Both the position numbers and the translations under genes were made by a program. A DNA stretch of 26,098 nt, taken from the NCBI GenBank assembly GCA_045863395.1, contig BTVJ01000098.1:1-26098 (forward strand). Reading direction: 5' to 3'. Source of the stretch: Myxococcales bacterium (GTDB lineage Bacteria; Myxococcota_A; UBA9042; JABWCM01; BTVJ01). Under the pieces are notes generated by a model that was not told where the DNA came from, made no database searches, and worked only from the letters and a program-made list of their open reading frames with translations. Of the stretch, positions 1,771-26,098 are shown in pieces; within the stretch, counting starts at the first letter, position 1, and every line of letters starts with the position of its first letter.

Positions 1771-1773
1771 CGC

Positions 1774-2145: not shown

Positions 2146-2148
2146 GGC

Positions 2149-2427
2149 CTACCCCACTCGGAAGACGAGGCCGAAGTACAGCGCCGAGGCGACCGCGATC
2201 AGCCCCGACAGCACCAGGAGCCAGCGCGCGCGGGCCTCGTCGTCGCCCTCGGTGTAGCGCCGGAAGATCGCCAGCGCCACCACGGTCCAGAGGACCCACA
2301 CGGCGAGCATGATCCCCGCCCCGGCCAGGACCGGCCAGAGGCGCTCCACGAAGAGGTCCCAGTACGCGAACCGGGGCTGGGCCATCGCGTCCGCGATCAC
2401 CGGAGCCCCAAGGACAATGCCACTCAT
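2149..2427 (-). CDS. Small integral membrane protein (92 aa, 2 TM)
   Basis: This is the C-terminal part of track ORF 2149..3246. The likely real start is ATG at 2427 (MSGIVLGAPV...), preceded by AGGAGGT overlapping the upstream TGA. TM segments are LWPVLAGAGIMLAVWVLWTVVALAIF and WLLVLSGLIAVASALYFGLVF. Confidence 0.75.
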   Translation of the reverse strand: MSGIVLGAPVIADAMAQPRFAYWDLFVERLWPVLAGAGIMLAVWVLWTVVALAIFRRYTEGDDEARARWLLVLSGLIAVASALYFGLVFRVG

Positions 2428-2432
2428 GTCGC

Positions 2433-7092: not shown

Positions 7093-7102
7093 GGCCCCCC
7101 CC

Positions 7103-10100: not shown

Positions 10101-10984
10101 GAGATGTGTGTGACGGTGGACGAAGCCCACAGGGGGAGCTGCCCCTTGGCCGGGTCCGCGCCGGCCGCCTCGAAGCGCTCGAGGTAGGTCTTCGTGGCGG
10201 TCTGGCGGCCGAGCTTCTGGAAGTGCTCCAGCTCCATGAGCGCGGCGCAGCAGTTGGCCTCCACCCGCGTCGCGTTGACGCCATACTGGGCGGCGGTCAG
10301 CGCCGTGTCCAGGAAGGCGTGGCCCACGAAGTCGTGGCACAGCGGGTCGTTGCCGATGAGCTGGCGGAGCGCGGCGGCCACGTGGAGCGCGCCACCGGAG
10401 CCGGTCCCGCCAGCGAGCCCGAACACCACATGGACCTCGTAGCCGGCCTGCGGGTCCGCCTCCGAGACGGTGGCTCTGCGCTTGAGGAAGGTCTCCAGCC
10501 TGTCCATGAGGCCCTGGTGGTCCAGCGCGTGGTGGACTGCCATGCGCGTCACGAGTCGCCGCTGGCCGGCGCCCGGGAGCTGGAGCATGGTGACCGGTGC
10601 ACCGACGACGAGCCTCCCGTCGCTCACCGTGGTCTGGCGCGGAAGCCACGCCTCGAGCTGGTCGCGGACCCGGCTCGGTGGACCGGCCAGCGTGGCGTCG
10701 TACCACCGCTTGGCGCGCTCGATGTCGAGCGTGAACCGCTCATCGAGGTCCAGCCCGCTGCTGCTGAGCTCACCGCCGTCGGTGTCGATGGCCAGGTAGA
10801 GGTAGCGGGCGCCGACGCCGGCGTGGCCGGCAGTCGCGACGCCCGCCGCGTGCGCCAGCACCCTCTTGAATGACTGGATGGTCTTCACCCCGGAGCCTCC
10901 CACGCCGACCACCAGGAAGGTCCGCTGGCTGTAGGGGTTCACGAGGACGCGGCCTGCCTCTTCCATCGCGTGAGTGTGCGGCAT
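7103..10984 (-). CDS. Divergent tubulin/FtsZ-like GTPase (Tubulin_2 / FtsZl1-type) with a long alpha-helical C-terminal extension
   Basis: 1293 aa. Contains T1-like FLVVGVGGSG, YLAIDTD, T3-like GAGQRR, the tubulin signature loop FGLAGGTGSGG (AGGTGSGG at 10414-10391) and NCCAALMEL. AGGAGGT RBS lies at 11001-10995. Confidence 0.88.
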   Translation of the reverse strand: MPHTHAMEEAGRVLVNPYSQRTFLVVGVGGSGVKTIQSFKRVLAHAAGVATAGHAGVGARYLYLAIDTDGGELSSSGLDLDERFTLDIERAKRWYDATLAGPPSRVRDQLEAWLPRQTTVSDGRLVVGAPVTMLQLPGAGQRRLVTRMAVHHALDHQGLMDRLETFLKRRATVSEADPQAGYEVHVVFGLAGGTGSGGALHVAAALRQLIGNDPLCHDFVGHAFLDTALTAAQYGVNATRVEANCCAALMELEHFQKLGRQTATKTYLERFEAAGADPAKGQLPLWASSTVTHISRAPFSYVYLYEQTGRQSGVQAYQSAAEALFAATYQGVHQPSASDHANYQLQLSQVYGPKSGLPGSTASYAAHGSAVVHLPREELVRYLSTLVVGDVLERTSPLHLEFARLASDEQGRAELTRLDAERARAATAPRTAPAVRRALIGKCFLASVVELGCSEAREMRGALGTGTNELSIWGSVARTLSLAHPTRTLMGQLVAKMKEVLTSASRGLDAHLAEGLYAQKATFSSVVNKRKNQAAGALREADALVAEFARELSSASFWTSLVGAESDLAASSASAGADLPTVAELCLLYAITACDLNATSPLPATPDEWFAALPHWSHGPSSDVEQSLRALHPDRFPGLFGTGALARLASRAESARAEFEAALKGADEHVRAGTDRINEIQRPKTGLEKWLSKLTADNTDEEVQGEINKLVGELHAMTAQPALEALQWVVVSGLASAVRQAALVRIAGYESYSEAAHAAAQELRKESHALLVPASRGFLHDHEVLTDHNGHQRLWHWYYLDQVADLDIKRQFGGLGGGAPDGGATLDTLGAHIVGFMAAVRSQVAGLSSRELAAALVRRSSHSLKAALEGELEAYLRARLTLERAITLQADYGELSVLSQQAVAGSASGVDVLSSYYDRVRSGRTTRATLHNGRAEALVGSVVARCHDLLSSPLARVSPVAGAPDRPQSGAFAAIAIGTPPTANLDTDDQRRLADDRNQFIALLQSKGAGRLSVVRGHVPLLSPDVFIYYRRNMALIPEWFDEIANDADVLLNELQTGEAGPDLFTARQFTELSVAPDGLTVRRRPLLPFLGLAEQATELHTGREVEAAETRAALLALLLLSRAITVPGKGRDAVLGLRYVRESAHLSRWALEVEWAPGDVEVLQREEPRLATSATDLLAIVRQARRSTAALEGDPRFGLSPEARSALTLFLSAVAALDDALLALQPETVGAHVMRSSLDAGARAALKARVKAELEQRMATKHDPIPGTRAHYPGHYVADIERYAALLEFVLD

Positions 10985-11008
10985 GACGGTTCAGACCTCC
11001 TTTGAGGG

Positions 11009-13708
11009 TCAGGAGCAGAGGCCCGCAAGGCGGGACCAGGAGTAGATGAGCAGCGCGAGGCACCCCAGGATGAAGAGCCAGAGGTGCCACCGGATCGGGT
11101 GCAGCAGCGGACCAATCAGGTCGGCGAACGTCTCCCGCGCGGACCGCTTCTTCGCGCCCAGGCGGAGCTCGGCCCGCATGGGGTGGACGTCGCTGCCAGA
11201 GGCGGCCATCAGCCCCTCGGGGACTGACCGGACCGACTGGATCGGCAGCTTGCGCTTGGTGCGGAAGCCATCCTTGAAGTGGAACGTGATGTCTCCTCGG
11301 TAGTGCTTCGACGCGGGCTTCACGTAGAGGCCATACCTCACCGAGCCCGTGAACCACCGGGTCAGCATCCAGTTTCTCGCGCGCGCGCCGGGCGCATAGT
11401 CACCCTCCAGCGGGACGGGGCGGGTCTTGCCCTTCTCGTCGACGGTGGCGATCACGGAGATGTCTCGCAGCTCGCCGGGGAACCCGTAGGTGTTCACGAT
11501 GAGGAGCAGCGCGGCGGCCCCGAGCAGCAGGAAGAGGAGAGTCGCGACCACGGCCGCGCCGCGGCAGGTCCACCAGCCGTCCGACAGGAGGGGCTTGTGG
11601 AAGTCGAAGCGCTGCGAGCCGACGGGCACGGCGAAGCGGCGCGTGGGGAAGACCGTGACCACCGCCTCGTGGACTCCGTCCAGGCTGCACAGGGAGCTGT
11701 CCGTGCGGAGAGTGGCCAGCGAGACGGTGCCGCCCGCCGGGATCGTGAGGATCGGGGGCGCCAGCTCCACGAGGGCGTCCCCGGGGCTCGCCTCCGCGAC
11801 GAGGGTCACCTGCTCGGCGTCTCCGTCGGTCTTGACGTCCACGCGGGAGCCCACGAGGCAGATGGGGCACGCCGCCCCGTTGACCAGGGACAGGTGTGCC
11901 ACGTTTCCGGCGGCGGGGCAGGCGTCCCAGGGCTGGGCCTCAGCCCGGGCGCCGATGGCCGTCAGCTTGTCGAAGGGGTTGGTGAAGGTCAGGTGCAGGG
12001 TGGATCCCGGCGGTCCCCCGGGTGCGGGAATCGGCAGATCCACCGTAGACATGGCCGGGTCCAGCGCGCAGCCGTCGGCGTCCGGCTGGAACTTCACCGC
12101 GAGGTCGACGACCCAGGCGCCGCCCGCGTCCTGGCGGGGCGGCCCGTCCTGGGCGATGGCGAAGCACGCGGCGTGGGGGCCGTCCGGCAGGGGCACCACC
12201 ACGGACTTGTCCGGGCAGGCCTCCTCCAGCGGGGCGGTGACGCGGACGACCCGCGCGCTCTCCTCACAGCACCACGAGAAGGCGGCCTTCAGATCGAGTG
12301 GCTCCTTCAGCTTGCACGCGGCGCAGGAGAAGTCGCGTGCCGGGGAGAGGTCGACGGTCTGGCCCTGGCGTGTGGGGTGGTCCGCCACCACGCGGGCGGA
12401 CCAGTCTCCGCGCTTGCAGCGCCAGGGGGCGCTCGGGGCGTCGAAGACTCCAGAGGCTCCCACGCGGCCGAGCGCGAGAGTGGTCTCGGGCTGGCCCGTG
12501 CGCGCGTCGGTCACCACCACCCGGGCATTGCGCTCGTCGCAGCGCCCGGTCAGGTGCGTGCGGAAGCACAGCTCGGCGCCGACCGCGATGGGGTCGGGGT
12601 TTGCGGGGTCGGCGGGCCACAGCGCGGCGGGCGGACAGCCTCCGACCCCCAGGAGGAGGCTGCGGTCCCGAGCGTCGGACTGCTGCACGGGCACGAAGAG
12701 GGCCCGCCACACGGCCTCGGGCGGAGACACCTCCACGCGGAGCTGCGCCGCGGTCGAGGTGACGTGGTGGATGGCGTAGTGATATTCCTTTGAGGACTTC
12801 GAATACTGGTATGTGCTCTTCAGGGTCTCCTTCGCGGTGACGGACCCGGCGGTGTCCGGCGCTCCCTTCGGGTCGACCCCATGCACCGTCACCGTGAAGG
12901 CGCGGTCAGCCAGCACGAGCAGGCGCGTCTCTGCGCTGGTCATGCAGCCCTGGAGCGTGGGCACTTCGGGAGTCGCCTCTACGGCCTCGCTGTAGGCCGC
13001 CCCGACGCGGAGCGCCCCCGCGAAGGCCGACAGCAGTGTCTCGCCCGATGCCGTCCCAGTCGCGAGGGGGTCGCTCGTGCCCAGGGCGACGGGGAAGGAG
13101 ACGATGGTCCCGGCCGAGACGGCCGACTGCACCTGCTGGAAGCTCTGCTGGGACCCGGCACCGAGGGCGATGAACACGGACGGGATGGGCGAGGAGCGAC
13201 CGGTTGAGAGAGCCTGCAGCTCGGTAGCGTAGTCGCTCCCCGCGGCGCAGTCTCCATCTCCGAGGACGACCACGACCTGGGGTCGTTTGGGAGACTTGGC
13301 GTGGGCTGCGTCCATGGCCGGCTTCATGACCCGGAACCCGGCCCGGCAGTCAGTCCCCTCGCTGTATGCAGCGATAGGCCGGAGCGCCTTGAGATCCGGG
13401 GTCTTTCCGAGGGGAATGACGACCGAGGCGTCCGCGTGCTTGGCGACGAGGACCCGGTCGTCCGGCCCGAGGAGCGCCCCCAGGAGCAGGGTCGACAGCA
13501 CGGTCACCCGGGACGGGTCGTTTGCCTGCATGGACCCGGACACGTCGAGGAGGACGAAGTAGTCGACGCCGCGGGCGGGCGGGAGCTTCTTGGGGGTGCT
13601 GGCCGCGGCCTGGGCCGAGGCGAGGGCGAGGAGCGCTCCGATCACGAGGACGGCGCGCGTGCGATGTGCCCTTGCGTCGGCGATCATGGTGGCGAACGTG
13701 CTGGCCAT
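11009..13708 (-). CDS. Secreted, membrane-anchored von Willebrand factor A (vWA) domain protein
   Basis: 899 aa. Signal-peptide-like N-terminus (AVLVIGALLALASAQA), MIDAS DxSxS motif FVLLDVSGSM (13546-13529), then EGTD and VVVLGDG. A Cys-rich beta-strand stalk leads to TM helix AAVVATLLFLLLGAAALLLIV and a second C-terminal TM helix LWLFILGCLALLIYSW. Confidence 0.85.
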   Translation of the reverse strand: MASTFATMIADARAHRTRAVLVIGALLALASAQAAASTPKKLPPARGVDYFVLLDVSGSMQANDPSRVTVLSTLLLGALLGPDDRVLVAKHADASVVIPLGKTPDLKALRPIAAYSEGTDCRAGFRVMKPAMDAAHAKSPKRPQVVVVLGDGDCAAGSDYATELQALSTGRSSPIPSVFIALGAGSQQSFQQVQSAVSAGTIVSFPVALGTSDPLATGTASGETLLSAFAGALRVGAAYSEAVEATPEVPTLQGCMTSAETRLLVLADRAFTVTVHGVDPKGAPDTAGSVTAKETLKSTYQYSKSSKEYHYAIHHVTSTAAQLRVEVSPPEAVWRALFVPVQQSDARDRSLLLGVGGCPPAALWPADPANPDPIAVGAELCFRTHLTGRCDERNARVVVTDARTGQPETTLALGRVGASGVFDAPSAPWRCKRGDWSARVVADHPTRQGQTVDLSPARDFSCAACKLKEPLDLKAAFSWCCEESARVVRVTAPLEEACPDKSVVVPLPDGPHAACFAIAQDGPPRQDAGGAWVVDLAVKFQPDADGCALDPAMSTVDLPIPAPGGPPGSTLHLTFTNPFDKLTAIGARAEAQPWDACPAAGNVAHLSLVNGAACPICLVGSRVDVKTDGDAEQVTLVAEASPGDALVELAPPILTIPAGGTVSLATLRTDSSLCSLDGVHEAVVTVFPTRRFAVPVGSQRFDFHKPLLSDGWWTCRGAAVVATLLFLLLGAAALLLIVNTYGFPGELRDISVIATVDEKGKTRPVPLEGDYAPGARARNWMLTRWFTGSVRYGLYVKPASKHYRGDITFHFKDGFRTKRKLPIQSVRSVPEGLMAASGSDVHPMRAELRLGAKKRSARETFADLIGPLLHPIRWHLWLFILGCLALLIYSWSRLAGLCS

Positions 13709-13992: not shown

Positions 13993-16362
13993 GTGGCAGA
14001 ACCCGAGAGCAAGGAGCTGGCCGACGAGACGCTCACCCTGCTGCGGCGCCTCGGCGAGACGACACGTAGCGGCCAACCTCACGCAGGCGTCCGGGACAGC
14101 TTGAAGCGGCTCGAGGCATTGGGCGCGCTCCCGCCCGAGGCGCCGGCACCGGACTGGGTGGCCAGTCCAGAGTTGGAGCAGGCGCTCCAGTTGGCGGGAT
14201 CGGCGGTCGGGATCCACCGCGCAAATGGCTCGAAGGCGCAGAAGAAGGGGCAGAGACCCTACCTGTGGGAGCTGCTCCACAGAGTCGCCGACCCCGCCTG
14301 GAAGACGACGCTTCAGGCATTGTTCGAGCGGATCACTGGCGTCCAGTACCCCAGACCTCCGAAGCGGCCGCCGCAGGACGCGTCACCGAGGCCCGTTGTC
14401 GCAAACGCCGCCACACCGAGGCGCTCTGTGGCGAGGCCCGCTCCGGGTCCCGCGCCGAAGCGCACGCCGCGGCCGAATCGGTCGCGGGAGCTGACCATCT
14501 ACATGGACGAGGTCTGGGACCCTGATTGCAGTACGCAGGGGGTCATCGCTGGGGTGGCGGTCGACGGCTTTCCCGCTCCAGGAGCTCTCCATGGGCCGGG
14601 GGCCTTCGGCCTTCCGCCAACGGCAGATCACCTGTGGCGAAACAGTCCCAAGACCGCGGACGAGCGGCTGACTGCGGTCCTCGGAAACAAGGAGCTGCGC
14701 CCGTTCGTGTTTCCGATTACAGCGGTGACCGGTAGGGCCCAGGCGCAACACGATGAGCTGGTGGTGCGGGCCATCGAGCTATTGCTGATTCTGCTGGACC
14801 GTTGGGAGCCGGTGACCCGTGGCCACCGATCCGTGCGCGTCTATCTCGACCAGCACGCCCCCCACAACGCCGGCGACGTCTGGACAGACTATGTCCGCGG
14901 GCGGCTCGATGGAGCGCGTGGTGGCGCCAGCCGCTGGCACGTCGACCACGTGGGGTGGTGTGATGGTCGTGCGGGGCTCATCCCTCTGGCTGACCTGCTC
15001 GCAAACCCGTTCCACCCGGCTGGGAAGGGGCGCACCCGACGGGATGATCTGCGCCGCCTCCCCCTCTATGCGGAGCTGTCGCTCAGTCTCCTTCCTGCGC
15101 TGCAGGCCGTGTGGAGCGACGAGACCCCACCGGGGCAGGGGAGGGTGAGTGGGCGCGCCGAGGCCATCGTGGACTTCTTCGGGCTTGCGAGCGGCAACCT
15201 GGGGGACGAGGTCCTTGGCCTCATCGGGACGCAGGTGCGACGCGACGACGCGCTGGCGCGTGCCGTCGCGCGTGAGCTGGACGAGCGGTTTCGTGCCAAG
15301 GACCGCGACCTGGCGCGGCTCCGTCGAACCTGCCGAGCGTGGGAGCAGGTCCTCCCGTTCGATGCTCCCGGTGTCTCCGTCGGAGTTCAGCTCCTGGCGC
15401 GAGCTGTCGCCATCCAGGAGGCGAACCACTCCGGTGCGCCGGAGCGGGCGCGAGTCCACGTGGAGGCCTACCGGTCCGGGCTTCGGCGCGCGGCTGCGGA
15501 CGCCCACCGCGAGGACGTGTGCTTCGCCGATCTCAACGTGGCGGTCTATCACGCGGACCGCCTCGAATTTGAGCGGGCGCTGAGGGTCGCCAACGATGTC
15601 CTTGGAGACCCGGCGTTCGGGGCGTTGAGCCCGCGGAGCCGGGGGCGCGCCCTGAGCAGCGCGGGCCAGTACCTGGCCATCTTGGGCGAGGCCGATGAGG
15701 CGGATGCCCGCTTCGTCCAGGCGATCTCGCAGTTCGAGGCGGCGGACCTTCCCGACGTCGAGCGTGCGGGCGAGCTTGCACAGACCCGCAGCTACCGGGC
15801 GATCAACGCCATGGACGCGCCGCTGGACGGGTGGCGGGAGCGCTTGTCCGAGCTGCTTGGGCCCCTCGACGCCGCCGCCCGGTCTTTTGCGCAGGATGCC
15901 GGCGGGTCGGCGGCAGACTACCGTCACCATGTCCTGCTTCGAGCGTGTGCAGGACCCCCGGACGACGTCCTCCGCTCCGTCTCCGAGGTGTATCTCGCGG
16001 AGCGGACCGCATGGAAGCGGGGCGCGCTCCAGCACCCCTGGGAGCTCATCCATCTCTACAGGGGTCTGTTGGTCGCCCGCGCAGGGCTGGGCGAGTCGGT
16101 CGCCGCGGAGTGGCTCGATGCGGCGCTGGAGGTGGCGTGTGCACCGGACCATGGGCGCGTCATCCGGCTCATCGGCGCGGCCATCGCGGTGGAGTCGGAG
16201 CGTGTCGTCCCTGGGCGATACGCAGAGAGGGCGCGAGGGCTGATCGGTCGAGTGCGCGAGGAGTGGCCGGAGGCGGCGCCGCGCTTGGACGTCATCGGCG
16301 CTGCGCTGGATTCCCCGGAGGCCTCGTCGTCGCTGCTCGCTCTGCCCTTCACCTATCGGTAG
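13993..16362 (+). CDS. Hypothetical protein: N-terminal helical domain, Pro-rich linker, DUF3800-like RNase H-fold domain and C-terminal TPR-like helical repeats
   Basis: 789 aa, GTG start with GGGAG RBS. Contains IYMDE (14497-14511) followed by VIAGVAV, VRVYLDQ and LIPLADLLA (14977-15003), which resembles the DUF3800 hYhDE...hADhhA pattern. An amphipathic TPR-like segment (RALSSAGQYLAILGEADEADARFVQAI) follows. Confidence 0.55.
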   Translation: MAEPESKELADETLTLLRRLGETTRSGQPHAGVRDSLKRLEALGALPPEAPAPDWVASPELEQALQLAGSAVGIHRANGSKAQKKGQRPYLWELLHRVADPAWKTTLQALFERITGVQYPRPPKRPPQDASPRPVVANAATPRRSVARPAPGPAPKRTPRPNRSRELTIYMDEVWDPDCSTQGVIAGVAVDGFPAPGALHGPGAFGLPPTADHLWRNSPKTADERLTAVLGNKELRPFVFPITAVTGRAQAQHDELVVRAIELLLILLDRWEPVTRGHRSVRVYLDQHAPHNAGDVWTDYVRGRLDGARGGASRWHVDHVGWCDGRAGLIPLADLLANPFHPAGKGRTRRDDLRRLPLYAELSLSLLPALQAVWSDETPPGQGRVSGRAEAIVDFFGLASGNLGDEVLGLIGTQVRRDDALARAVARELDERFRAKDRDLARLRRTCRAWEQVLPFDAPGVSVGVQLLARAVAIQEANHSGAPERARVHVEAYRSGLRRAAADAHREDVCFADLNVAVYHADRLEFERALRVANDVLGDPAFGALSPRSRGRALSSAGQYLAILGEADEADARFVQAISQFEAADLPDVERAGELAQTRSYRAINAMDAPLDGWRERLSELLGPLDAAARSFAQDAGGSAADYRHHVLLRACAGPPDDVLRSVSEVYLAERTAWKRGALQHPWELIHLYRGLLVARAGLGESVAAEWLDAALEVACAPDHGRVIRLIGAAIAVESERVVPGRYAERARGLIGRVREEWPEAAPRLDVIGAALDSPEASSSLLALPFTYR

Positions 16363-17014: not shown

Positions 17015-17316
17015 GGTCTGTGGTCCTCCTCTGCGTTCGTCCCCAATGATGGACGGCGAGTGCCGGGAACGCCAGCTCTCTCACGCGCAGTCATGTCGGT
17101 TCTCGACCTGGGCGGCCTGCCCGCACCGTGAGGGCTTCGCGAATCTTCCTGTCAGAGCCTTCCGCCGAGAGGTTCTCCGGCCCTGTGGGCTGGACGTGGG
17201 CATGGCCCTGTCCAGCGGTGTGCGGCATGTCGCTGCACCGGGCCGGCGTCCGAGGTGGGGCCGAAGGCTTCGTGAGGTCGCCGGCGCATCGTGTTCGCAG
17301 ACGTGTGAGGGAGACC

Positions 17317-20300
17317 ATGTCGAGGTTCGTAGGGATCGGGGCCGGGCGGGGACGCTCGGTGTGGTGGCTGGGGGCGGTCGTGGTGCTCGGGGTTCTGATG
17401 CCGCGGCTGGCGATGGCGCAGAGCGTCGCCTGGTACAGCCAGAATGACGCCAAGTGGAAGTCGAACAAGCTCGGGACGTGCTCGGGGCTGACCATCGGAT
17501 CTCACGGGTGCGTCGTGACCTGCATGGCGATGCTCCACACCGCGGAGACCAGCGTGGCGTCCGGGGTGGATCCCGGGGCGCTCAACACCTGGATGACGAA
17601 CAACGGCGGCTACGCTGAGGGCTGTCTGACGGACTGGGCCAAAGCTGCCGCCTACGACGGCGCGGGTGGCCTCGTCTACGTGGGGTCCAGCGGAACCTGG
17701 AACGACTGGGCCTACCTGGACGCGCAGCTCGCCGCGGGCCGCATGGTCGTGGTGAAGGTGGACTTCACGCCGACGACCGCGGACATCGCCGAGCACTGGG
17801 TGGTGGTGACGGGGCGCACGGGGCCGAGCGGGGTCCCGAGCTCCTACCCGATCAACGACCCGTACCCCACGACGTATGTGGCCCGGACGCTCCAGCACTA
17901 CTACGATTCCACCTCCAAGAACACCTTCTTCGCGGCGCGGTCCTTCGGTGGCACGTTCGGGTCTTCGGGGACGTGCCCGACGGCGGACGGCACGCTGATC
18001 AAGAAGACCTCGACGGCGGCCATCTACTACATGCTCCGCGGCAAGCGCTGGTGGATCCAGAACGAGACCCACTTCAACGCGCTCGGACTCTCGTTCTCCA
18101 ACGTGTGCGAAATGGCGGACTCCAAGGTGGACGCGATCCCGCTCGGGCCCACCATCGGCGCGAACGGGACGACCTTCAAGACCACCAGCGAGGTCACGGT
18201 GTGGAAGGTCGAGGGCACCCAGCGCAGGAAGTTCGACCTGGAGTGGGTGTTCAAGGACTGCTACGGCCTCTCCTTCGACGACGTGTTCGACAAGGCCACG
18301 ACGACATTCCGAAACCTGTTCCCGGAGGGGTCCAAGATGGCCTACGACTGCCAGCCGGGGAGCAAAGAGTCACAGTCCTGCGGAAGCTGCGGCGAGGGCT
18401 CCAAGTCGCGCACCTGCTCTTCGGCCTGTACGTGGGGCTCGTTCGGGTCCTGCGCGAACCAGGGGGTGTGCTCTCCGGGGCAGTCACAGTCTCAGCCCTG
18501 TGGGTCGTGCGGTGAAGGCTCGCAGACGAGGACGTGCTCGTCGTCGACGTGCCAGTGGGGCTCGTGGGGGTCCTGCGTGAACCAGGGGGTGTGCTCGCCC
18601 GGGCAGCAGGAGACCCTGGCGTGCGGACTCTGCGGGGAGGGTCTCATGAGCCGCACCTGCAAGTCGGACTCGTGCACCTGGGGGAGCTACGGCGCCTGCG
18701 GCGGGACGGGTCCCTGTGCGCCGGGAACCACGGAGTACTCGGCGTGCGGCACGTGCGGAGAGGGCCAGAAGTCCCGCACGTGTGACTACGCCACCTGCGA
18801 TTGGGGCGGGTGGGGCACCTGCGGTGGCGCGGGTGTCTGCGTCCCCGGCGAGGTCCAGAAGGAGGCCTGTGGCGCGTGCGGCGAAGGCACCCGCTCCAGG
18901 GTGTGCCAGGCCGGGACGTGCGGGTGGGGAGCGTGGGGACTCTGCGAGACGGGGGCGACCTGCTCGCCCGGTCAGAGCGAGACCCAGGCGTGCGGAGACT
19001 GCGGCATGAGGACGCGCCAGTGCTCGGCGGACTCGTGCACCTGGGCGGCCTGGGGCGCGTGCTCCGGTGAGGGTGTGTGCTCACCGGGAGAGACCGAGAA
19101 GGGCTCCTGCGGAGACTGCGGCTCGCGGGTTCGCGCCTGCTCCGGCGCCTGCGGGTGGCAGGAGTGGAGCGCGTGCTCCGGGCAGTGCAACGACGGAGAC
19201 GCCTGCAACGGTGTCGAGACCTGCACCGGAGGGGTGTGCCTGGCCGGGTCGCCTCTGCTCTGCGACGACGGGAACGCATGCAACGGCGTCGAGACCTGCG
19301 ACGCGAGCAGCGGCTGCAAGGCCGGGAAGCCGCTGGTGTGCGACGACGGCAACGCGTGTAACGGCGTCGAGACCTGCGCTCCGGCGCTCGGCTGCCTGGC
19401 CGGCTCACCGGTCGCGTGCCCGGCGAACCTCCCCTGCAACCCCGCCACCGGGACCTGCGCGGTCTGCGTGCCTGACTGCGCGGGCAAGGCGTGCGGCGGC
19501 GATGGCTGCGGGGGCTCCTGCGGGACCTGCGCCGGCGATCCCTGCGCACCGGCGGCCTGTCAGGCGGGGCAGTGCGTGTCTCTGCCCGTGGACTGCTCGG
19601 ACGGCAACCCCTGCACCACCGACGGCTGTGACCCGAAGACTGGCGCCTGCACACACGACGCCCTGGTCTGCGACGACAACGACGTGTGTACCAAGGACCT
19701 GTGCGTGGGCGGAGTCTGCCAGAGCGTCTGGTCCGGTGTCTGCACGTGCACCGTGGACGCCGACTGCCCCAACGACGGCGACCTGTGCAATGGCTCGCTC
19801 CTGTGCAAGGCGGGCCAGTGCGTGACGGACCCCGCGACGGTGGTGACGTGCGCGGGGGGAACGTCCTGTGCGCCGCAGACCGGGCTCTGCACCTGCACGC
19901 CATCGTGCGCGGGCAAGGCGTGCGGGGACGACGGCTGCGGTGGGAGCTGCGGCGCCTGCACCGGCTCGCCCTGCGCCACGAGCGCCTGTGTGGAGGGCAA
20001 GTGCCTGACGGCGCCGCTGGTCTGCGGCGACGGCAACCCGTGCACGGACGACGCGTGCGACCCGGCGGCAGGCTGTGTCCACACGCCGAAGAAGTGCGAC
20101 GACGGGGACCCCTGCACCGTCGGGGTGTGCGAGGGGGCGTCCGGCGCCTGCGTCCACCTGCCGAAGGGCTGCGCCTGCACCAGCGCCGCCGACTGTGGCG
20201 GAGGGCTCTGCGGAGACTCCCAGGCATGCATCGACCATGTCTGTGTCGCCGTCCCCGGGACCGCGGTGGTGTGCCCGGCCGGGACTGCCTGCGACCCGGC

Positions 20301-21129
20301 CTCCGGCGCCTGTGTGGGCTGTGTTCCCCAGTGCGACGGAGTCTGCGGAGACGACGGGTGCGGCGGGAGCTGCGGTGGCTGCGACGACGGCGACTCGTGT
20401 ACGGACGATGGGTGCGTCACCGGCGCGTGTGTGTTCACCTCCAAGGCGTGCGATGACGGCAATCCATGCACGGACGACGGATGCGCTGGGGGAGTCTGCA
20501 CCTCGGCGCCTCGCACGTGTGACGACGGCGTGGCGTGCACCCTGGACCTGTGCGACGGCCTCACCGGGGCCTGCTCCAACCTCGCCATGGACTGCGGATG
20601 CGCCACGGACGGTGACTGTGAGGACGACGGTGACCTGTGCAGCGGCACGCCACTCTGCGTCGAGGGGACCTGCGTGGCCGGCCCCAGCGTCACCTGCGCC
20701 GCCGGAACCTGCGACCCCGAGACAGGCGCCTGCGTCGTCTGCAAGCCGGCGTGCTCAGGGCGAGACTGCGGCGACGACGGCTGCGGCGGGAGCTGCGGCA
20801 CCTGTGAAGGCGCGTGCGAGGACGGCCGGTGCGCCTCCGCCTGCGTCTGCCCGCCGGGCGGTGAGCTGGTCTGCGGTGCGGATGGAGTCACCTGGGGCTC
20901 CGAGTGTCTCGCCGCTTGCGCCGGTGCGACCGTCGCACACGCGGGGCCGTGCATCGCCGCCGAAGCCGACGCCACGTTGGGTCCCACCGGCGGTCTCACG
21001 GTCGGCGTCCCGGCGGACGGCTCCGCGGACGGCGGGTGCAGCGCGGGCGGTCCGGCGGCCTCTGTCTGGGCCCTCCTGCTGATCCTTGGGGTCCTTCGAC
21101 GACGCCGGCAGGACCACGCATCCTTGTAG
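17317..21129 (+). CDS. Large Cys-rich cell-surface protein: signal peptide, C39-like papain-fold peptidase, two ~58-aa repeats, seven TSP1-like repeats, Cys-rich stalk, Kazal-type domain and MYXO-CTERM anchor
   Basis: The likely start is ATG 17317 after GAGGGAG (1270 aa), in frame with track ORF 17128..21129. Signal peptide ends LAMA|Q. YSQND...IGSHGC (Cys 17509), HWVVV (His 17794) and INDP (Asp 17857) form a C39-like triad. The C-terminus reads GGCSAGG-PAASVWALLLILGVL-RRRR. Confidence 0.85.
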   Translation: MSRFVGIGAGRGRSVWWLGAVVVLGVLMPRLAMAQSVAWYSQNDAKWKSNKLGTCSGLTIGSHGCVVTCMAMLHTAETSVASGVDPGALNTWMTNNGGYAEGCLTDWAKAAAYDGAGGLVYVGSSGTWNDWAYLDAQLAAGRMVVVKVDFTPTTADIAEHWVVVTGRTGPSGVPSSYPINDPYPTTYVARTLQHYYDSTSKNTFFAARSFGGTFGSSGTCPTADGTLIKKTSTAAIYYMLRGKRWWIQNETHFNALGLSFSNVCEMADSKVDAIPLGPTIGANGTTFKTTSEVTVWKVEGTQRRKFDLEWVFKDCYGLSFDDVFDKATTTFRNLFPEGSKMAYDCQPGSKESQSCGSCGEGSKSRTCSSACTWGSFGSCANQGVCSPGQSQSQPCGSCGEGSQTRTCSSSTCQWGSWGSCVNQGVCSPGQQETLACGLCGEGLMSRTCKSDSCTWGSYGACGGTGPCAPGTTEYSACGTCGEGQKSRTCDYATCDWGGWGTCGGAGVCVPGEVQKEACGACGEGTRSRVCQAGTCGWGAWGLCETGATCSPGQSETQACGDCGMRTRQCSADSCTWAAWGACSGEGVCSPGETEKGSCGDCGSRVRACSGACGWQEWSACSGQCNDGDACNGVETCTGGVCLAGSPLLCDDGNACNGVETCDASSGCKAGKPLVCDDGNACNGVETCAPALGCLAGSPVACPANLPCNPATGTCAVCVPDCAGKACGGDGCGGSCGTCAGDPCAPAACQAGQCVSLPVDCSDGNPCTTDGCDPKTGACTHDALVCDDNDVCTKDLCVGGVCQSVWSGVCTCTVDADCPNDGDLCNGSLLCKAGQCVTDPATVVTCAGGTSCAPQTGLCTCTPSCAGKACGDDGCGGSCGACTGSPCATSACVEGKCLTAPLVCGDGNPCTDDACDPAAGCVHTPKKCDDGDPCTVGVCEGASGACVHLPKGCACTSAADCGGGLCGDSQACIDHVCVAVPGTAVVCPAGTACDPASGACVGCVPQCDGVCGDDGCGGSCGGCDDGDSCTDDGCVTGACVFTSKACDDGNPCTDDGCAGGVCTSAPRTCDDGVACTLDLCDGLTGACSNLAMDCGCATDGDCEDDGDLCSGTPLCVEGTCVAGPSVTCAAGTCDPETGACVVCKPACSGRDCGDDGCGGSCGTCEGACEDGRCASACVCPPGGELVCGADGVTWGSECLAACAGATVAHAGPCIAAEADATLGPTGGLTVGVPADGSADGGCSAGGPAASVWALLLILGVLRRRRQDHASL
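17986..18340 (+). repeat. Two ~58-aa protein repeats (DGTLIKKTSTAAIYYMLRGKRWWI...F...GLSF / NGTTFKTTSEVTVWKVEGTQRRKF...F...GLSF)
   Basis: Visible self-similarity in the translation, directly after the peptidase domain. Confidence 0.7.
18349..19185 (+). repeat. Seven tandem ~40-aa six-Cys repeats (CxPG...CGxCGEGxxxRxC...CxWxxWGxC), thrombospondin type-1-like
   Basis: Counted in the translation: units begin CQPG, CSPG, CSPG, CAPG, CVPG, CSPG and CSPG, each with a Wxx[W/F/Y]xxC motif and an xRxC motif. Confidence 0.85.
19186..20835 (+). repeat. Cys-rich stalk: three CDDGNACNGVETC units followed by three ~140-143-aa super-repeats built from CxPxC...CGxDGCGGSCG and CDDGNPCTxD modules
   Basis: The CxPxC...DGCGGSCG module starts at 19465, 19894, 20320 and 20740 (spacings 429, 426 and 420 nt). 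Confidence 0.85.
20842..20952 (+). other. Kazal-type domain
   Basis: CVCPPGGELVCGADGVTWGSECLAACAGATVAHAGPC matches the Kazal pattern C-x-C-x7-C-GxDGxT[YW]xxxC...C...C. Confidence 0.75.
21031..21108 (+). other. MYXO-CTERM-type C-terminal sorting signal
   Basis: GGC motif, short spacer, hydrophobic helix and RRRR at the C-terminus. Confidence 0.8.
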
Positions 21130-21165
21130 GCAGGTTGCGCCCGGGCGGGTCGCCCTACCTCTGCG

Positions 21166-21216
21166 GGCAATCACACCGCCACGTGCCAGCGTGTGTCACG
21201 TCGCGGTGTGGCTGCC
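21166..21216 (+). terminator. Long GC-rich stem-loop downstream of the surface-protein gene; possible terminator or RNA stability element
   Basis: GGCAATCACACCGC-C-ACGTG pairs with CACGT-C-GCGGTGTGGCTGCC (about 18 pairs, 2 mismatches, 11-nt loop). No U-tract follows. Confidence 0.4.
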
Positions 21217-21457
21217 TCATCGACTCCGTCCGGTCCCCGACTCGTCTCACCTCCCCGAGACCAGTAGAGTTCGTGCGTGACATCTGCGGCGTCCTGCGAT
21301 ACGGTCCGCACTGCCAGCACCCAGGAGGGGACCGCCAGGAGGGAGACCTCAGGACCTGACCGCGGGGCCGTGTCAGATCGGGGCGGCCCGCGACTCCCCT
21401 CTCTCTGAGCCTGGAGTGAATCTCCGGGACGCGGGCACCACCTTCGGAGGACGACTC

Positions 21458-23377
21458 ATGGCAGAGCCAGACGTCATCGCGGCGCGCACCACCCTGGTGT
21501 TCGCCTTCCAGTGGGACGCGTCTGCGCGGACCGTCGCCGAGTGGGCGGACCTGGCGCTCTCGCGCCGGCTGCCCAAGCGGCGCGCCGACAGGGAGCCCTG
21601 CCCGGTGTGGCAGGGAGTCGACATCGGCAAGCGCGCCGAGCAGGTCCACGAGCTGTCCGGGTCCATTCGCGCCATGCTGGGCCTGACGCAGGGGGCGGAT
21701 GCGGCCCCGGGCGTCCCAGAGTCGGAGGGGCCGTCCATGCGGTGGCTCGAGCTGCACGCCGACGCCCGACAGGTGCTGTTCTCGAAGGCGGTGCTGACGG
21801 ACGGCAAGAAGGCCGCTCCGGCGGCGCGGCCACTGGTCGAGGGTGTGGAGCTGGTCGTCTTCCCCATCGGGGTCGGGGCGCTGCTCTTCCGCCTCGACTG
21901 GCAACCGAGGGGAGCGCAGCGTCTCCCCGCGACGCGCCTCCGCCACCTGGTCCACGTGGCGCGCACGGTGGTCGCGGAGGACGGCACGCCCGGGTGGCGG
22001 CTCGATGGGGCGCCCGCTCCTCTCCCCGACGGGTCTGCGCCGCCGCACCTGGACCCCGGCGCGCCGGAGCACGTCGACGCGCTCGGGCCCGAGCTGGTGG
22101 CCGCGCTCTACGGGAGTGCCTGCGTCGACCTGCGCACGGCCGCGACCTGGCTCCTCATGCTCCCCGGCGACCCAGAGGGTGAAGGCAAGCGGCGCCTCGG
22201 CCGGAGCCGGTACGCCTTCCACCAGACCGCGGTGGTGCTCGACGGGGCTCCAGATCCGGGTCTGGCGACCGAGCTCCTGTTCCACCTGCGGCGGGGCTAC
22301 GACGCGGAGTATGCGCCCCCGTCGGACCCGGGGCGCGACGTGGTCCTGGTGCCCCGCGCCAACCGCATGATGGGCGTGGCCCGCGAGGGGACCGCGAGCC
22401 TCTCGTGGGTCACGGATGACGCCAACGCTCCCTTCGAGACCCTGGACTGGCCGCTGCGCTTCACGCGCGGGGTCTATCTGGTCCTGGCGCTGTTGGTCCA
22501 GGCCGAGCGCGGAGCCCTGTCGCGGCTGGAGGAGCTGGTCGCGGCCCAGGTCGCGGCGGTGCTCCGTCTCAAGCGCCCGGCCGGCGGAGCGGACGCCGCC
22601 CATGCGGACAACGTGCGCGCGGCGCGGGACGCGCTGCGGACCCTTGCGGTGGACATGGTCCAGTACACGCTGAGCATGACCCCCGATGACACGGGCGCCA
22701 TCACGGACTACGACGACTTCTTCGACGCGCTGAACAGCGTCTATGGCGTCAAGGAGATGCAGGCCGCGGTGCGCGACGACCTGCGCGAGGTGGTCTCCCT
22801 GGTGGAGGCGACGTACCACGAGCTGCAGGAGATTCGGCAGCACGAGGAGGCGGTGGCCCAGGCCGAGCGTCTCCAGATGGAGCAGCGGGAGCGTGACGCC
22901 GACGCTCGAAGGCGTGAGGCCGAGCGTGCGGCCGATGAGGCGAGGCGTCTCGAAGGCGAGGCGCGGCTGAAGCGCCAGCGCCAGCAGGACCTCGACGAGC
23001 GCGAGCGCCACTGGAAGCTCGGCGAGCTGCGGGACCGCCGCGTCCAGGGCCTGGTGGCGGTCGCGGGCGGGTTGACGCTTCCCTTCGTGCTGGTGGCCAG
23101 TGTGTTTGGGATGGAGCTTCAGACTCTCCCGCAGTGGGACATCCGGGTGGTCATCGGTCTGGCGGTGGCTGCCTCGGTGACCCTGGGACTGTTCTTCTGG
23201 TGGTATCTCCGCCGCCCCTTGGAGCTGCCGTCGACGCCGGCCCGCTCGACGAACGGCGTGGCTCCAGACTCCAGGCTCCCCGCTGGCGGAGACGGAATTG
23301 CGCCCACGGGGGGGACGTCGAGCCGCGGTGGTGGGGCCGGTTCGTCCGATCCGCCATCGGGATTCACCGCCGGTTGA
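21458..23377 (+). CDS. Divergent CorA-like membrane protein (639 aa) with a large soluble N-terminal domain, an extended charged helix and two C-terminal TM helices; signature is GME rather than GMN
   Basis: ATG 21458 with GGAGG at 21446-21450. TM1 GLVAVAGGLTLPFVLVASVFGME (FGME 23105-23116), a short loop, TM2 VVIGLAVAASVTLGLFFWWYL and a basic RR tail give the CorA/2-TM-GxN layout. Confidence 0.72.
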   Translation: MAEPDVIAARTTLVFAFQWDASARTVAEWADLALSRRLPKRRADREPCPVWQGVDIGKRAEQVHELSGSIRAMLGLTQGADAAPGVPESEGPSMRWLELHADARQVLFSKAVLTDGKKAAPAARPLVEGVELVVFPIGVGALLFRLDWQPRGAQRLPATRLRHLVHVARTVVAEDGTPGWRLDGAPAPLPDGSAPPHLDPGAPEHVDALGPELVAALYGSACVDLRTAATWLLMLPGDPEGEGKRRLGRSRYAFHQTAVVLDGAPDPGLATELLFHLRRGYDAEYAPPSDPGRDVVLVPRANRMMGVAREGTASLSWVTDDANAPFETLDWPLRFTRGVYLVLALLVQAERGALSRLEELVAAQVAAVLRLKRPAGGADAAHADNVRAARDALRTLAVDMVQYTLSMTPDDTGAITDYDDFFDALNSVYGVKEMQAAVRDDLREVVSLVEATYHELQEIRQHEEAVAQAERLQMEQRERDADARRREAERAADEARRLEGEARLKRQRQQDLDERERHWKLGELRDRRVQGLVAVAGGLTLPFVLVASVFGMELQTLPQWDIRVVIGLAVAASVTLGLFFWWYLRRPLELPSTPARSTNGVAPDSRLPAGGDGIAPTGGTSSRGGGAGSSDPPSGFTAG

Positions 23378-23481
23378 CGCGCCCGCTCAGAGCGTGCCAG
23401 GGTCGCTACCACATGAAATGACGGCATGATGACGGGCCGGGCGCAGAGCAGCCGGCCCACGAGCCCGAGAGGGAGGCAGTG

Positions 23482-26098
23482 ATGACAGCAGCATACGCAG
23501 ACGCCCACGAGGCGGTGGCGAGGATCCTGGCCGAGGGCAGGGGAGGGGAGTGGCCGCTGCCGGTGGAGCTGCCGCTCCAGCACCTGGACGACGCGTTGCG
23601 GCGCGGGATGCCGGGCCTCGCCTTCGTGAAGGTGCGGGAGGTGGCCGAAGGGATCGTGCGGGTGGCGTGGTGCACGCTCCTGCACGAGGTCATCGAGTGG
23701 GTGCCGGCGGTGGAGTCCCTCGCCCAGCTCCCGGACGCGGAGCGGGAGGCCGTGGACGCGGTGCTTTCTTCGGCGACGAGCGGCGCCTTCACCTTCGGTG
23801 GGGCCTGCCATGTGGCGGCAGTGGGTCCGCAGGGCATCGCGAGGCCGCTCGCGGCGTTGGCCCCGGTGTTGGGGGGCGACTCGCTGGCTGGGGCGTGGCA
23901 CGGCGCGCTGGCGGCGGACAAAGGGCTGCGCGAGGCGCTCCACGCGCTGTGGGAGTGGCGCAATCACCGTTTCGCCCACGGCTTCGTCGGGGACGCGGAC
24001 GCCTACGCGGCGCTCTTCGATGAGCGGCTCACCGACCGGGACCGTTGGCGCAGGGCCATGGCGCCGGGGGCCGGGTCCCCGCTGCCGGCGCTGCTCGCCG
24101 TGCTGGAGCGAGCCAGCGGCTGGCTGGATCGGGCGTCCGTGGCGTTGCGCGCCCTCGGGTGGCCGAGCGCCGTGGAGGCGGCGGCGTGGGCGGGGGGCCC
24201 GGCGCTGGAGCCGTGCCCGGAGCCGGTGGCGTGGCGCGGCGGCCCGCGCCCCCTCTACCTGTGGGACCGCGCGAAGGGCTCCTCGCTGGACGTGGTGGAC
24301 GTCGCCGGGGGCGAGTCGAAGAGGCTCCCCCTGCCGGAGCGCCACCAAGCGCTCGCCGCGGCCGCGCGCGCGGCCCTGACGCTGCCGCCGTCGCTGTTCG
24401 GGCCCACGTGGGGCGGTGCGCCGTCGTCCGGGCGCGAGGAGCGCCACATCGTCAAGACCGACGCGCTGCTGGAGCAGGTGCTCGGCGCGGTGGAGGCCGG
24501 CCACCGGCGCGTGGGCATCACCGGGGCGGCCGGGGCGGGCAAGACGGTGCTCGGTCTGGCGGTCGAACGCGCGCTCGTCCAGGAGCGCTGGGCGGTGGTG
24601 CGGGTGGCGGCCGGCGCGACGGGCGCCATGGACGCGACGCGGCTCCCGCGCCGGGTGCAGGAGGGGCTGGAGCGCCAGCCGCAGCGCCTCCGGGGCGTCG
24701 TGATGGACCAGCGGGAGGTGTGCTTCGACGAGGCGGTCCTGCTGGCACAGGGGGACGCCGCCGCGCTGGCCCGCTGGTGGCGGGCGCTGGCGGCGGCCAA
24801 CCCGGGGCGACGCTTCGCGCTGATCCTGGACGGCCTGGACGAGTGGCACGCGGGGGGCACCGATGGCGCGTCCCTGCTGCCGCCCCTCGACGGGGCTGGC
24901 GCAGACGCCTTCACGGTCGTCCTCGGCTACCGCTCGCCGCGGGAGGTGGCGGCGTGGCTGCGCCCGGTGGTGACGGGCCTCCCGGACGCGGCGCGGGTCG
25001 ACGTGCAGCGGTGGCTCGACGCCCCTGCCGGGCGGGCGCTCCTCGACGGCTACCTGGCGAAGCACCACCCGGGGGTGCCCCCCGAGCGTCGGGCGGACGT
25101 CGCCGCGCGTGCGGACGGGCGCTTCTTGTGGGTGTACCACTACGCGCAGGGGCTGGAGGCCGGCTTCCTGAGCGGCGCGTCACCGGCGGAGTGGCCGGCG
25201 CCCGACGCGTTCTACGGCCGCTACTTCGCGTGGCTGGAGGACCGCATGGGCGGCGCGCCGGGCTACGTGAAGTGCCTCCGCCGCACGCTGCTCACCCTGT
25301 CCGCCGTGGGCATGCCGGTCAACGACCCCACGCTGGCGTGGCTGTGGCGCCTGGACGCGTCCCCCGGCGCCGAGGCCCCCGAGGGCTGGGTGGACTGGTT
25401 CGAGCCAGTGCTGTCGGATCTGCGAGGCTTCCTGGTACGGGGCCCGGTCTCCCTGCAAGCAGAGGACCCGGCGGAGGTCCGGGCGGCGCTGGTGGTGGCG
25501 CCGGACGCGGCGCGTGACTCGCGACATGCGGTCTGCCGGAGCCTCGCGCACCGGTCCCTCCAGGAGCACCTGGACGGGGGTGGTCTCGAGCCCGCCTGGG
25601 CGGAGGCGCGGGCCGAGGTGGCGCGCCTGCTGGCCGACCGGACCCGGGCGGCGATCCTGGGGCTGGGTGATGATCCGCCGGAGGCCCGCCCCGGTGACAA
25701 GGACGCGAGTGGGCGCCGCCCCTGGGACGCGGCGCCGCTCCGGCTGGCGCAGCAGGCATTCTGGAGGCTCCAGGCGGCGGCGGGCGCCTCGGCGCAGGAG
25801 CTGGAGGCGTTGGCGTGGCCGTACCGGGCGCTGCTCCCGGAGTGGGAAGCTGCGGTGGTCACCCCGTGGATCCTGCACGGTGCGGCCGGCGCCCGAGAGG
25901 GCTCGGAGATCCTCGAAGCTGGGAGCTCGGGCGCCGCGACGGCCGGGCGCGGCGCGCTGCTCCTCTCGGCCGCGCAGCTCCACTACGCTGCCCGGAGGCT
26001 CGCGGACGCCATGCGCCTCGCCGCTGACGCGGTCGCCGTGCGCCGGGCCCTCGCGCGACTGCCACAGGACAGACCTCCCACGCCCGACGAGCTCGCTG
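23482..26098 (+). CDS. HEPN-like domain + STAND (NACHT-type) NTPase + winged helix + start of TPR repeats; at least 872 aa, truncated at the window edge
   Basis: Manually translated and not in the ORF track. GGAGG at 23472-23476, ATG at 23482, and no stop to the end of the window. Motifs are WRNHRFAHG (R 23959, H 23977), Walker A GAAGAGKT (24523-24546), Walker B FALILDGLDE (24814-24843), sensor-1-like VVLGYR, GRFLW (25117-25131), HRSLQEHL (25549-25572) and TPR-like LLLSAAQLHYAARRLADAMRLAADAVAVRRAL. Confidence 0.85.
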   Translation, partial: MTAAYADAHEAVARILAEGRGGEWPLPVELPLQHLDDALRRGMPGLAFVKVREVAEGIVRVAWCTLLHEVIEWVPAVESLAQLPDAEREAVDAVLSSATSGAFTFGGACHVAAVGPQGIARPLAALAPVLGGDSLAGAWHGALAADKGLREALHALWEWRNHRFAHGFVGDADAYAALFDERLTDRDRWRRAMAPGAGSPLPALLAVLERASGWLDRASVALRALGWPSAVEAAAWAGGPALEPCPEPVAWRGGPRPLYLWDRAKGSSLDVVDVAGGESKRLPLPERHQALAAAARAALTLPPSLFGPTWGGAPSSGREERHIVKTDALLEQVLGAVEAGHRRVGITGAAGAGKTVLGLAVERALVQERWAVVRVAAGATGAMDATRLPRRVQEGLERQPQRLRGVVMDQREVCFDEAVLLAQGDAAALARWWRALAAANPGRRFALILDGLDEWHAGGTDGASLLPPLDGAGADAFTVVLGYRSPREVAAWLRPVVTGLPDAARVDVQRWLDAPAGRALLDGYLAKHHPGVPPERRADVAARADGRFLWVYHYAQGLEAGFLSGASPAEWPAPDAFYGRYFAWLEDRMGGAPGYVKCLRRTLLTLSAVGMPVNDPTLAWLWRLDASPGAEAPEGWVDWFEPVLSDLRGFLVRGPVSLQAEDPAEVRAALVVAPDAARDSRHAVCRSLAHRSLQEHLDGGGLEPAWAEARAEVARLLADRTRAAILGLGDDPPEARPGDKDASGRRPWDAAPLRLAQQAFWRLQAAAGASAQELEALAWPYRALLPEWEAAVVTPWILHGAAGAREGSEILEAGSSGAATAGRGALLLSAAQLHYAARRLADAMRLAADAVAVRRALARLPQDRPPTPDELA

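Follow-up and report, generated by a model that had tools for sequence, protein, structure and literature searches.

CorA-type proteins act as immune effectors in type III CRISPR systems. In the accounts of Chi et al. 2023 (PMC10600005) and Hoikkala et al. 2024 (PMC11229360), they are described only in CRISPR loci, and their activator comes from Cas10. The N-terminal domain of CRISPR CorA has a unique fold and was proposed to be a sensor of S-adenosylmethionine-AMP (SAM-AMP), with the site residues R152-R153 and D219-D220 in B. fragilis CorA; the effector reportedly seems to come together with a degrading enzyme in every case (Chi et al. 2023, PMC10600005). Different ligands are suspected for different CorA clades (Hoikkala et al. 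2024, PMC11229360). A second group of related systems comprises bacterial nucleotide-binding leucine-rich-repeat (NLR)-like STAND proteins, and HEPN is among the effector types that have been listed for NACHT proteins of bacteria (Kibby et al., bioRxiv 10.1101/2022.07.19.500537; bioRxiv 10.64898/2026.01.04.697583). Here, we analysed a 26,098-nucleotide stretch of Myxococcales DNA, referred to as the window, which is an entire contig (BTVJ01000098.1, C98) of a genome (GCA_045863395.1, G000) of 8.77 Mb, 70.9% GC and 186 contigs. The window ends with gene A (21458..23377, + strand), encoding a CorA-like protein, and the beginning of gene B (23479..26098, + strand), encoding an NLR-like protein. 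The original prediction proposed that the two genes constitute a new anti-phage system. Gene A belongs to a family of CorA-type probable effectors that is related to CRISPR CorA; most of its members are encoded away from cas operons, next to conflict genes of various kinds. Seen as one two-gene system, the locus is weaker than first proposed.

Gene A extends from the ATG at 21458, preceded by GGAGGA, to the TGA at 23377. It encodes 639 residues, whereas housekeeping CorA has about 350-400. The AlphaFold (AF2) model, calculated from a 47-row alignment (predicted local distance difference test, pLDDT, 84.3; predicted template-modelling score, pTM, 0.76), contains an α/β soluble domain, a three-helix bundle, a long stalk into which a coiled coil is inserted, two membrane helices, and a disordered tail. 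The membrane helices are predicted from the model and from hydropathy at about residues 528-554 and 560-584 (23039..23209, + strand). With its helical bundle, stalk, and two C-terminal membrane helices, the modelled protein has the fold of the CorA superfamily, and it shares these elements and a loop at the GxN position with housekeeping CorA, ZntB, and Mrs2 (PF01544). All nine Foldseek matches at E<=0.001 were CorA structures, with weak template-modelling scores of 0.11-0.14, which agrees with the earlier description of the first gene as CorA-like. A wide structural search was dominated by helical bundles and did not probe the α/β domain; its top match was spectrin (Z 12.4), and C. jejuni CorA was found at Z 11.2 (root-mean-square deviation 2.5, 112 aligned). 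The A-family profile matches T. maritima CorA (E 8e-9), and Pfam CorA matches gene A weakly over residues 434-586 (E 1.2e-5, 25.2 bits, below the cut-off of 27). Sequence searches of the PDB with A alone and B alone gave nothing significant.

The signature of housekeeping CorA and ZntB is missing from gene A, which has neither GMN nor GVN and matches PF01544 below the cut-off in its C-terminal half only; GME at residues 551-553 replaces the GMN of CorA. The family profile aligned with 17 housekeeping CorA proteins over 79 membrane-end columns and no more, and the first 335 residues of gene A scored 0.4% against them in hhalign. Gene A could nevertheless be a divergent transporter of divalent cations that serves housekeeping or the stress response, next to which gene B would be an unrelated neighbour. 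Such a transporter would account for the CorA fold, for the GMN retained in 19 of 47 family rows and, as roughly counted by pattern, in 20 of the 27 rows that are eukaryote-like, for two loci among metabolic genes (L041 and L062), and for an intron-split eukaryote-like copy among ordinary genes (L072). We regard this explanation as improbable: the soluble domain is unrelated to that of housekeeping CorA and cannot be aligned with it, GMN has been lost in more than half of the rows, the host already carries an ordinary corA (Pfam E 3.6e-65), the family is very patchy whereas housekeeping CorA is near-universal, and the gene neighbourhoods contrast with those of housekeeping corA.

The relationship of gene A to the CRISPR effectors is distant and extends over the soluble domain. 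We compared the family with six CRISPR-type CorA proteins, five of which match the PADLOC CorA model (found in 7 of 301 genomes) and one of which is from a type III operon (L109); four of the six are encoded beside RAMP or Cas10 genes. The A-family profile aligned with this set over 437 columns (hhalign 98.6%, E 1.2e-15) at 15% identity, and the first 335 residues of gene A scored 87.9% (E 3.3e-6). Because the N-terminal part aligns here and not with housekeeping CorA, the soluble domain is common to gene A and the CRISPR CorA effectors. What the original prediction had offered as an analogy to CRISPR CorA is therefore homology, and gene A does not group with the housekeeping proteins. The PADLOC CorA model PDLC01043 gives partial matches to 31 of 47 family members at E<=0.05 (best E 3.4e-11); for several of them the match starts at about profile position 256, while that of housekeeping CorA does not start before 353. 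The most conserved motif of the family, RxNRxxGVxREG at residues 300-311 (22355..22390, + strand), was paired by hhalign with GFTRYSG in the CRISPR-type set. R300, N302, R303, and R309 are conserved in 43-47 of 49 bacterial-type rows, and this region is a candidate ligand-binding patch. Like type III CRISPR CorA (B. fragilis Cmr; PMC10600005, PMC11229360), the family combines a large soluble domain, in which arginines and aspartates are conserved, with a CorA-type two-helix membrane end, a likeness that refers to PADLOC-CorA-type proteins and not to the B. fragilis protein itself.

The family also differs from CRISPR CorA. In a quick tree of 85 rows (LG+G4, Shimodaira-Hasegawa-like approximate likelihood-ratio support only, with long-branch warnings), it forms one branch of 76 rows (support 96) apart from the CRISPR-type set. 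Gene A has the coiled-coil insertion before the membrane helices, the family includes an amoebozoan clade, and the locus contains a STAND neighbour instead of cas10 or a signal-degrading enzyme. No cas10, NrN, DEDD, or SAM-AMP lyase gene was recognised on C98 or on C163, the contig on which gene B continues. Consistent with the earlier remark that no cas genes are in view, none was recognised among the 17 window open reading frames (ORFs) submitted to Pfam.

Gene A could alternatively be a displaced type III CRISPR effector that is activated in trans by a Cas10 product from elsewhere in the genome. The host has three type III CRISPR/Cas10 loci (C2 290581-298582, C42 56555-66414, and C78 1765-18308), none with a CorA among the ORFs listed; one family member directly follows cas6 (L033, genome G346), and another is located 8.7 kb from cas10 (G408). 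Cas10-palm matches were found in six of ten genomes searched, that of G406 resembling a diguanylate cyclase. However, G407, G409, G410, and G273 have no Cas10 match. No NrN, DEDD, or lyase genes were recognised by eye at the three host loci, and CRISPR CorA has been described as having such a degrading partner seemingly without exception (PMC10600005). The family also has members in amoebae, which are not known to have Cas10. Activation in trans is thus very unlikely.

The soluble domain and the membrane end are also found in other combinations. In L109:9107-11755 (G549:C100), an A-family soluble domain lacks the CorA membrane end and is fused, with a hydrophobic helix in between, to a trypsin-like protease; the type III operon, which has its own CorA and a Card1-like gene, is 2 kb away. 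Therefore, the soluble domain can serve another output. L108:1-2034 (G212:C15) encodes an N-terminal part that appears DHH-like by eye, joined to a CorA-like membrane end. In L104:209-2805 and L106:395-2721, a CRISPR-type CorA-like gene follows a shorter gene as a tandem pair. The shorter genes match the same N-terminal region weakly and have a terminal 'EQDQGR' motif, and cas genes are absent from the 4 kb read.

Genes A and B are co-oriented, and the distance from the stop of A to the start of B is 101 nucleotides (GTG 23479) or 104 nucleotides (ATG 23482). The spacer (23378..23478, + strand; 101 nucleotides) ends in a ribosome-binding-like site, GGGAGG, and contains no sigma-70 promoter match and no terminator match; a sigma-70 promoter match is absent throughout 21100-23600. 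Both genes show the codon-position GC pattern typical of real genes, which rules out that they are opposite-strand shadow ORFs. One contig from a different study covers 20770-26073 with 35 differences, and therefore the adjacency of the two genes, as originally described, is not a misassembly. Contigs from three other runs end at 26073-26074, which is what a near-perfect tandem repeat would lead one to expect. Near-identical DNA is present in bioreactor, wastewater, and sludge runs. Contigs from RNA libraries cover both genes, and one of them, X5 (22006-24261), crosses the spacer; they are silent on transcription, strand, and co-transcription and are therefore not counted as support. A contig from run X17 contains a tail of gene A shifted towards protein P0002 (15 versus 12 of 19 residues), a heavily diverged spacer, and the first 630 nucleotides of B. 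Therefore, the pair is kept in a related strain. Genes A and B form a putative operon-like defence cassette with a predicted anti-phage role.

The 873 residues of gene B encoded in the window comprise a helical N-terminal domain with an Rx5H motif, a STAND NTPase, helical domains, and the first repeat. The final 55 nucleotides of C98 (26044..26098, + strand), in which the TPR-like tandem repeat starts, match C163:141-195. The frame of gene B continues there (L001:3-596, + strand) through a 62-residue repeat to a stop at C163:596. This genome has at least two repeat copies. The C163 repeat matches TPR_12 below the cut-off (E 5.6e-6), in line with the TPRs predicted to begin at the end of gene B. 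This order of an N-terminal effector-like domain, STAND NTPase, and C-terminal repeats resembles that of Avs/AVAST and bNACHT proteins (bioRxiv 10.1101/2022.07.19.500537; 10.64898/2026.01.04.697583). Unlike these proteins, B has a sensor made of near-identical 62-residue repeats and adjoins a membrane-channel gene, and CorA is unmentioned in the main texts of both preprints. Neither B nor its orthologue P0165 matches an Avs model of PADLOC 2.0 or NCBIfam, and the only PADLOC 2.0 match of B was AbiO (E 0.071).

The NTPase of gene B has been described as NACHT-type. Its STAND character is borne out by Walker A GAAGAGKT (residues 349-356) and Walker B LILDGLDE (residues 448-455; together 24523..24843, + strand), the latter of the hhhhDGLDE form, and by the helical domains and C-terminal repeats. 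NACHT is one candidate clade: PF05729 gave no match at E<=0.1, all Pfam matches of B were below the cut-off (AAA_16 E 2.1e-5, nSTAND_NTPase5 E 6.8e-4, and AAA_22 E 0.032), and residues 1-620 were nearest to mixed NB-ARC, NACHT, and NPHP3_N clusters in the Atlas. The HEPN domain claimed for the N-terminus is partly recovered. RNHRFAH at residues 161-167 (23959..23979, + strand) is a HEPN-type Rx4-6H motif; the domain is helical throughout, the motif is carried by a helix close to its end, and it is identical in P0165. A fold match was not obtained: Pfam had no match to the N-terminus, and a single-sequence model of residues 1-314 was unusable (pLDDT 38.5) and without a fold match. When the N-terminus was compared by hhalign with six RN..H domains from the loci, the motif helix alone aligned (0.4-2%); in the same comparison, the score of B as a single sequence was above all 40 random controls. 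Thus, the N-terminus of gene B is a putative HEPN RNase.

P0165, of 1623 residues, was the one orthologue of gene B found by a profile search (54% identity over 883 columns). It keeps RNHRFAHG, both Walker motifs and all others, has the entries NPHP3_N, AAA_16, and TPR, and contains ten near-identical 62-residue repeats at residues 889-1510, which vary at few positions. Members of the P0165 cluster with 1331 and 270 residues suggest length variation or assembly breaks. A word-index search with gene B found nothing, and the gene was present in one of 107 genomes of its class, its own. L025:6191-9490 (G028:C136) encodes an RN..AH domain, a STAND-like NTPase, and a C-terminal NMT1/SsuA-type solute-binding domain, an unusual sensor, in one protein. 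A complex prediction of A 1-460 with B 15-530 had a score of 0.00 with controls that were not folded, and it speaks neither for nor against contact.

The neighbourhood could be read at nine bacterial loci of the core family, which represent eight lineages, since L041 and L062 are closely related. A conflict-type neighbour of some kind was present at seven of the nine. In the host, gene A is followed by gene B and, across the contig join, by an AlbA_2/RecG-like gene. In G406 (L028, Planctomycetota), a protein of 1001 residues with RNLTSH and NACHT (E 1.6e-12) is encoded 29 nucleotides downstream. In G408 (L038), a ClpX-like ATPase and a TPR protein with RNLSCHAH are downstream, and the Cas10 operon is upstream on the opposite strand. 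The A-family gene of G028 ends a co-oriented run of PKD, Tubulin_2, helicase-like, NYN, RN-motif domain, and GNAT genes, and that of G407 is divergent from vWA-PKD and Tubulin_2 genes. In G409, the family gene lies beside converging vWA, PP2C, and kinase-like genes, which we take to be TerY-type. Among the distant members, L107 has an RN..H domain next downstream. The operon of L110 (1780-12615; G775:C6) consists of a TIGR02710-like gene of the CARF/Csm6-HEPN kind, two unknowns, a DEAH helicase with S1 repeats, and the distant CorA-like gene; the ORFs listed across the 13 kb read include no cas gene.

These loci bear on the original proposal of a two-effector system, which as a dedicated, coupled pair would have activation of B open A by contact or through an RNase product. 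Grouping of gene A with housekeeping CorA and a lack of adjacency elsewhere had been named as refuting that proposal, and neither was observed. The arrangement does recur: L028, from another phylum, has the same order with an Rx4-6H/NACHT gene, and the related strain retains the end of A and the start of B on either side of a changed spacer. The co-orientation, short gap, and lack of a terminator match between the genes also fit a coupled pair, as do the RN..H-motif proteins within two genes at G408 and G028 and the Csm6-HEPN/CARF gene heading the operon of L110. However, a STAND gene is directly downstream in two of the nine loci (G000 and L028) and missing from this position in seven, so that a conserved two-gene system was not found. 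Among the contexts that could be read, the orthologous pair is known solely from the close strain, and the partner in L028, the one other locus with an analogous pair, has no detectable relation to gene B (phmmer E 0.5-0.8). Among the 107 genomes of the class, gene B was found in its own only, while A is also found with other partners in G028. Amoebozoan members exist, and therefore the family cannot depend on partner B there. A dedicated coupled system is thus unlikely. Gene A is most likely an exchangeable effector, and not a dedicated partner of B; it is probably an immune effector set beside many defence genes, and not half of one fixed two-gene system.

As a control, we scanned the ordinary corA loci of six of the same genomes over about 7 kb on each side (one cut short), using 48 of 53 picked ORFs at E<=1e-5. 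None of the six had a STAND, cas, NYN, vWA, or Tubulin_2 match, and one had a DNA methylase and a kinase.

Operons of vWA and Tubulin_2 (FtsZl1) genes (Makarova and Koonin 2010, PMC2875224) and tubulin conflict systems (Kaur et al. 2020, PMC7159879) have been described previously. One such operon, which is divergent and includes the Tubulin_2 gene (7103-10984, - strand) and the vWA gene (11009-13708, - strand), lies 10.5 kb upstream of gene A in the window, and two more A-family genes have one nearby. Unlike the published operons, the part inside the window has no recognised GTPase or MoxR gene, and gene A is on the other strand. The operon at 361-13708 (- strand) also encodes two further membrane proteins, one with two helices and one that is degenerate and helicase-like, labelled helicase by eye without a Pfam match. 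Similar layouts occur in G028 and G407, and a second such operon is on G000:C32. Gene A could be an accessory of such machines, which may remodel membranes or act in conflicts, with B inserted later into the island. Tubulin_2 genes were found in four of ten genomes with an A-family or distant member, and in three of the four they are 5.6-13.8 kb from the A-family gene, although each of these genomes, of 4.9-8.8 Mb, has no more than one to three of them; in the fourth, G346, the short contig does not allow the distance to be judged. The original prediction did not include this link. G028 has them together in a single run of one orientation. On the other hand, six of the ten genomes have no Tubulin_2 match, the orientation is divergent in G000 and G407, the intervening genes differ, and the three operons share little beyond tubulin, PKD, and transglutaminase domains. 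CorA is absent from the main texts on these operons (PMC2875224, PMC7159879). We consider an accessory role in tubulin machines quite unlikely.

The A family is rare, patchy, and probably horizontally spread. At E<=0.001, an exhaustive search with gene A retrieved 199 proteins, and a word-index search found only gene A itself and P0002. Full-length members were present in 2 of 41 relatives, in 2 of the 107 genomes sampled from the class, in 4 of the 401 from the phylum, and in 5 of 401 when the sample was centred on Planctomycetota. Of the 41 relatives, 28 had weak C-terminal matches, which were mostly ordinary CorA. A genome-wide search for weaker matches, covering seven of the nine loci, showed ordinary corA in six of those genomes and none in G410. 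A conserved-peptide scan of GTDB found no relative. With a degenerate DNA pattern, 30 loci were retrieved from GTDB, 7 of them encoding family members, and 38 from metagenomes, 4 of them encoding family members, and the remainder are chance matches; some coincide with loci mentioned above (L050 = L095 = G028; L033 = G346). The plasmids and viral contigs searched had no A-family match. The pattern-derived loci L066 and L072 are fragmented and eukaryote-like, and the gene in pieces of L072, a metagenome locus, has an intron-like pattern. The alignment A1, intended to be bacterial, includes two eukaryotic-looking rows, P0018 and P0030.

When ten eukaryote-looking hits were looked up, four had source names, all Amoebozoa (Cavostelium, Arcella, Acytostelium, and Balamuthia), and six had no taxon. 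The four amoebozoan proteins fall in one branch of 27 rows (support 100), the other 23 of which are of unstated origin and labelled eukaryote-like by composition; one row so labelled is placed among bacteria in the tree. The 27-row clade fits a single transfer between bacteria and eukaryotes.

The reading that we favour, to which we give about an even chance, is that the A family is a mobile family of membrane effectors related to CRISPR CorA, recruited to varied conflict loci and here placed in a cassette with an NLR-like sensor. Several observations weigh against it. Gene A itself matches no PADLOC model (E<=1), and the family is a separate branch; therefore, a function shared with CRISPR CorA is an extrapolation. 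No second-messenger synthase or degrading enzyme adjoins gene A. The retained GMN, including that of most eukaryote-like rows, is compatible with ion transport. L041 and L062, two of the nine loci, are surrounded by housekeeping-type or metabolic genes, and the distant member L058 has no conflict-type neighbour. A defence role of the vWA, PP2C, and Tubulin_2 genes is not proven. The categories of neighbours were picked after the family loci had been viewed, and the control is therefore support of modest weight; it was also scanned at a stricter E-value than the family loci, 1e-5 versus 0.01. In the fold comparisons, the N-terminus of gene B gave no HEPN match.

Based on the favoured reading, a mechanism can be proposed. 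According to established STAND biology (bioRxiv 10.1101/2022.07.19.500537), the repeats of B would bind an invader protein, the NTPase would oligomerise, and the N-terminal domains would be brought together. Once activated, these domains may cut RNA. The gene A protein may assemble as a pentameric pore, which would open upon binding of a small infection-linked ligand, probably a nucleotide, to the arginine-rich patch of the soluble domain, as suggested by CRISPR CorA. The leak of cations through A would depolarise the membrane, and the infected cell would arrest or die. A and B probably act side by side within one cassette. HEPN domains could yield short RNAs with a 2',3'-cyclic phosphate. We speculate, while considering it improbable, that the family consists of CRISPR-independent nucleotide-gated CorA pores opened by the products of neighbouring immune RNases, and that amoebozoa acquired the pore once from bacteria and kept it. 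If so, gating by RNase products would link depolarisation of the membrane to an NLR-like sensor with no need for a dedicated cyclase, and the amoebozoan pore would be a bacterial immune effector retained in eukaryotes.

The surroundings of the cassette contain further genes. Co-oriented upstream of gene A is a gene for a secreted MYXO-CTERM protein with a Peptidase_C39-like domain (17128..21129, + strand), and nothing ties it to the A-B module; a MYXO-CTERM protein suggests that the host is a myxobacterium. The gene at 13993-16362 (+ strand) encodes a 789-residue protein with an IYMDE ... VYLD ... LADLLAN pattern followed by helical repeats; it resembles RNase H-like (DUF3800-type) proteins by eye, without Pfam or NCBIfam support, and is possibly a further defence gene. 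Beyond gene B, the gene with AlbA_2 and a RecG-like C-terminal domain (L001:893-2167, + strand; G000:C163) starts 296 nucleotides past the stop, and an AAA_14-DUF4143 gene (L001:2296-3543, - strand; G000:C163) converges on it. Both are common in variable islands. Membership in CATRA was rejected, as there was no Pfam CATRA match and the term is absent from the paper checked.

A literature search within main texts, with few subscription papers among them, found no account of the A family, of a CorA-like/STAND pair, or of the amoebozoan members; such loci could be listed in supplements. As the family mostly occurs away from cas operons and has STAND, HEPN-motif, NYN, and vWA-tubulin genes as neighbours, it is a testable question what opens the pore without Cas10. 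The amoebozoan clade is a candidate addition to the bacterial immune components found in eukaryotes, and since Acytostelium is a social amoeba, a knock-out is thinkable there.

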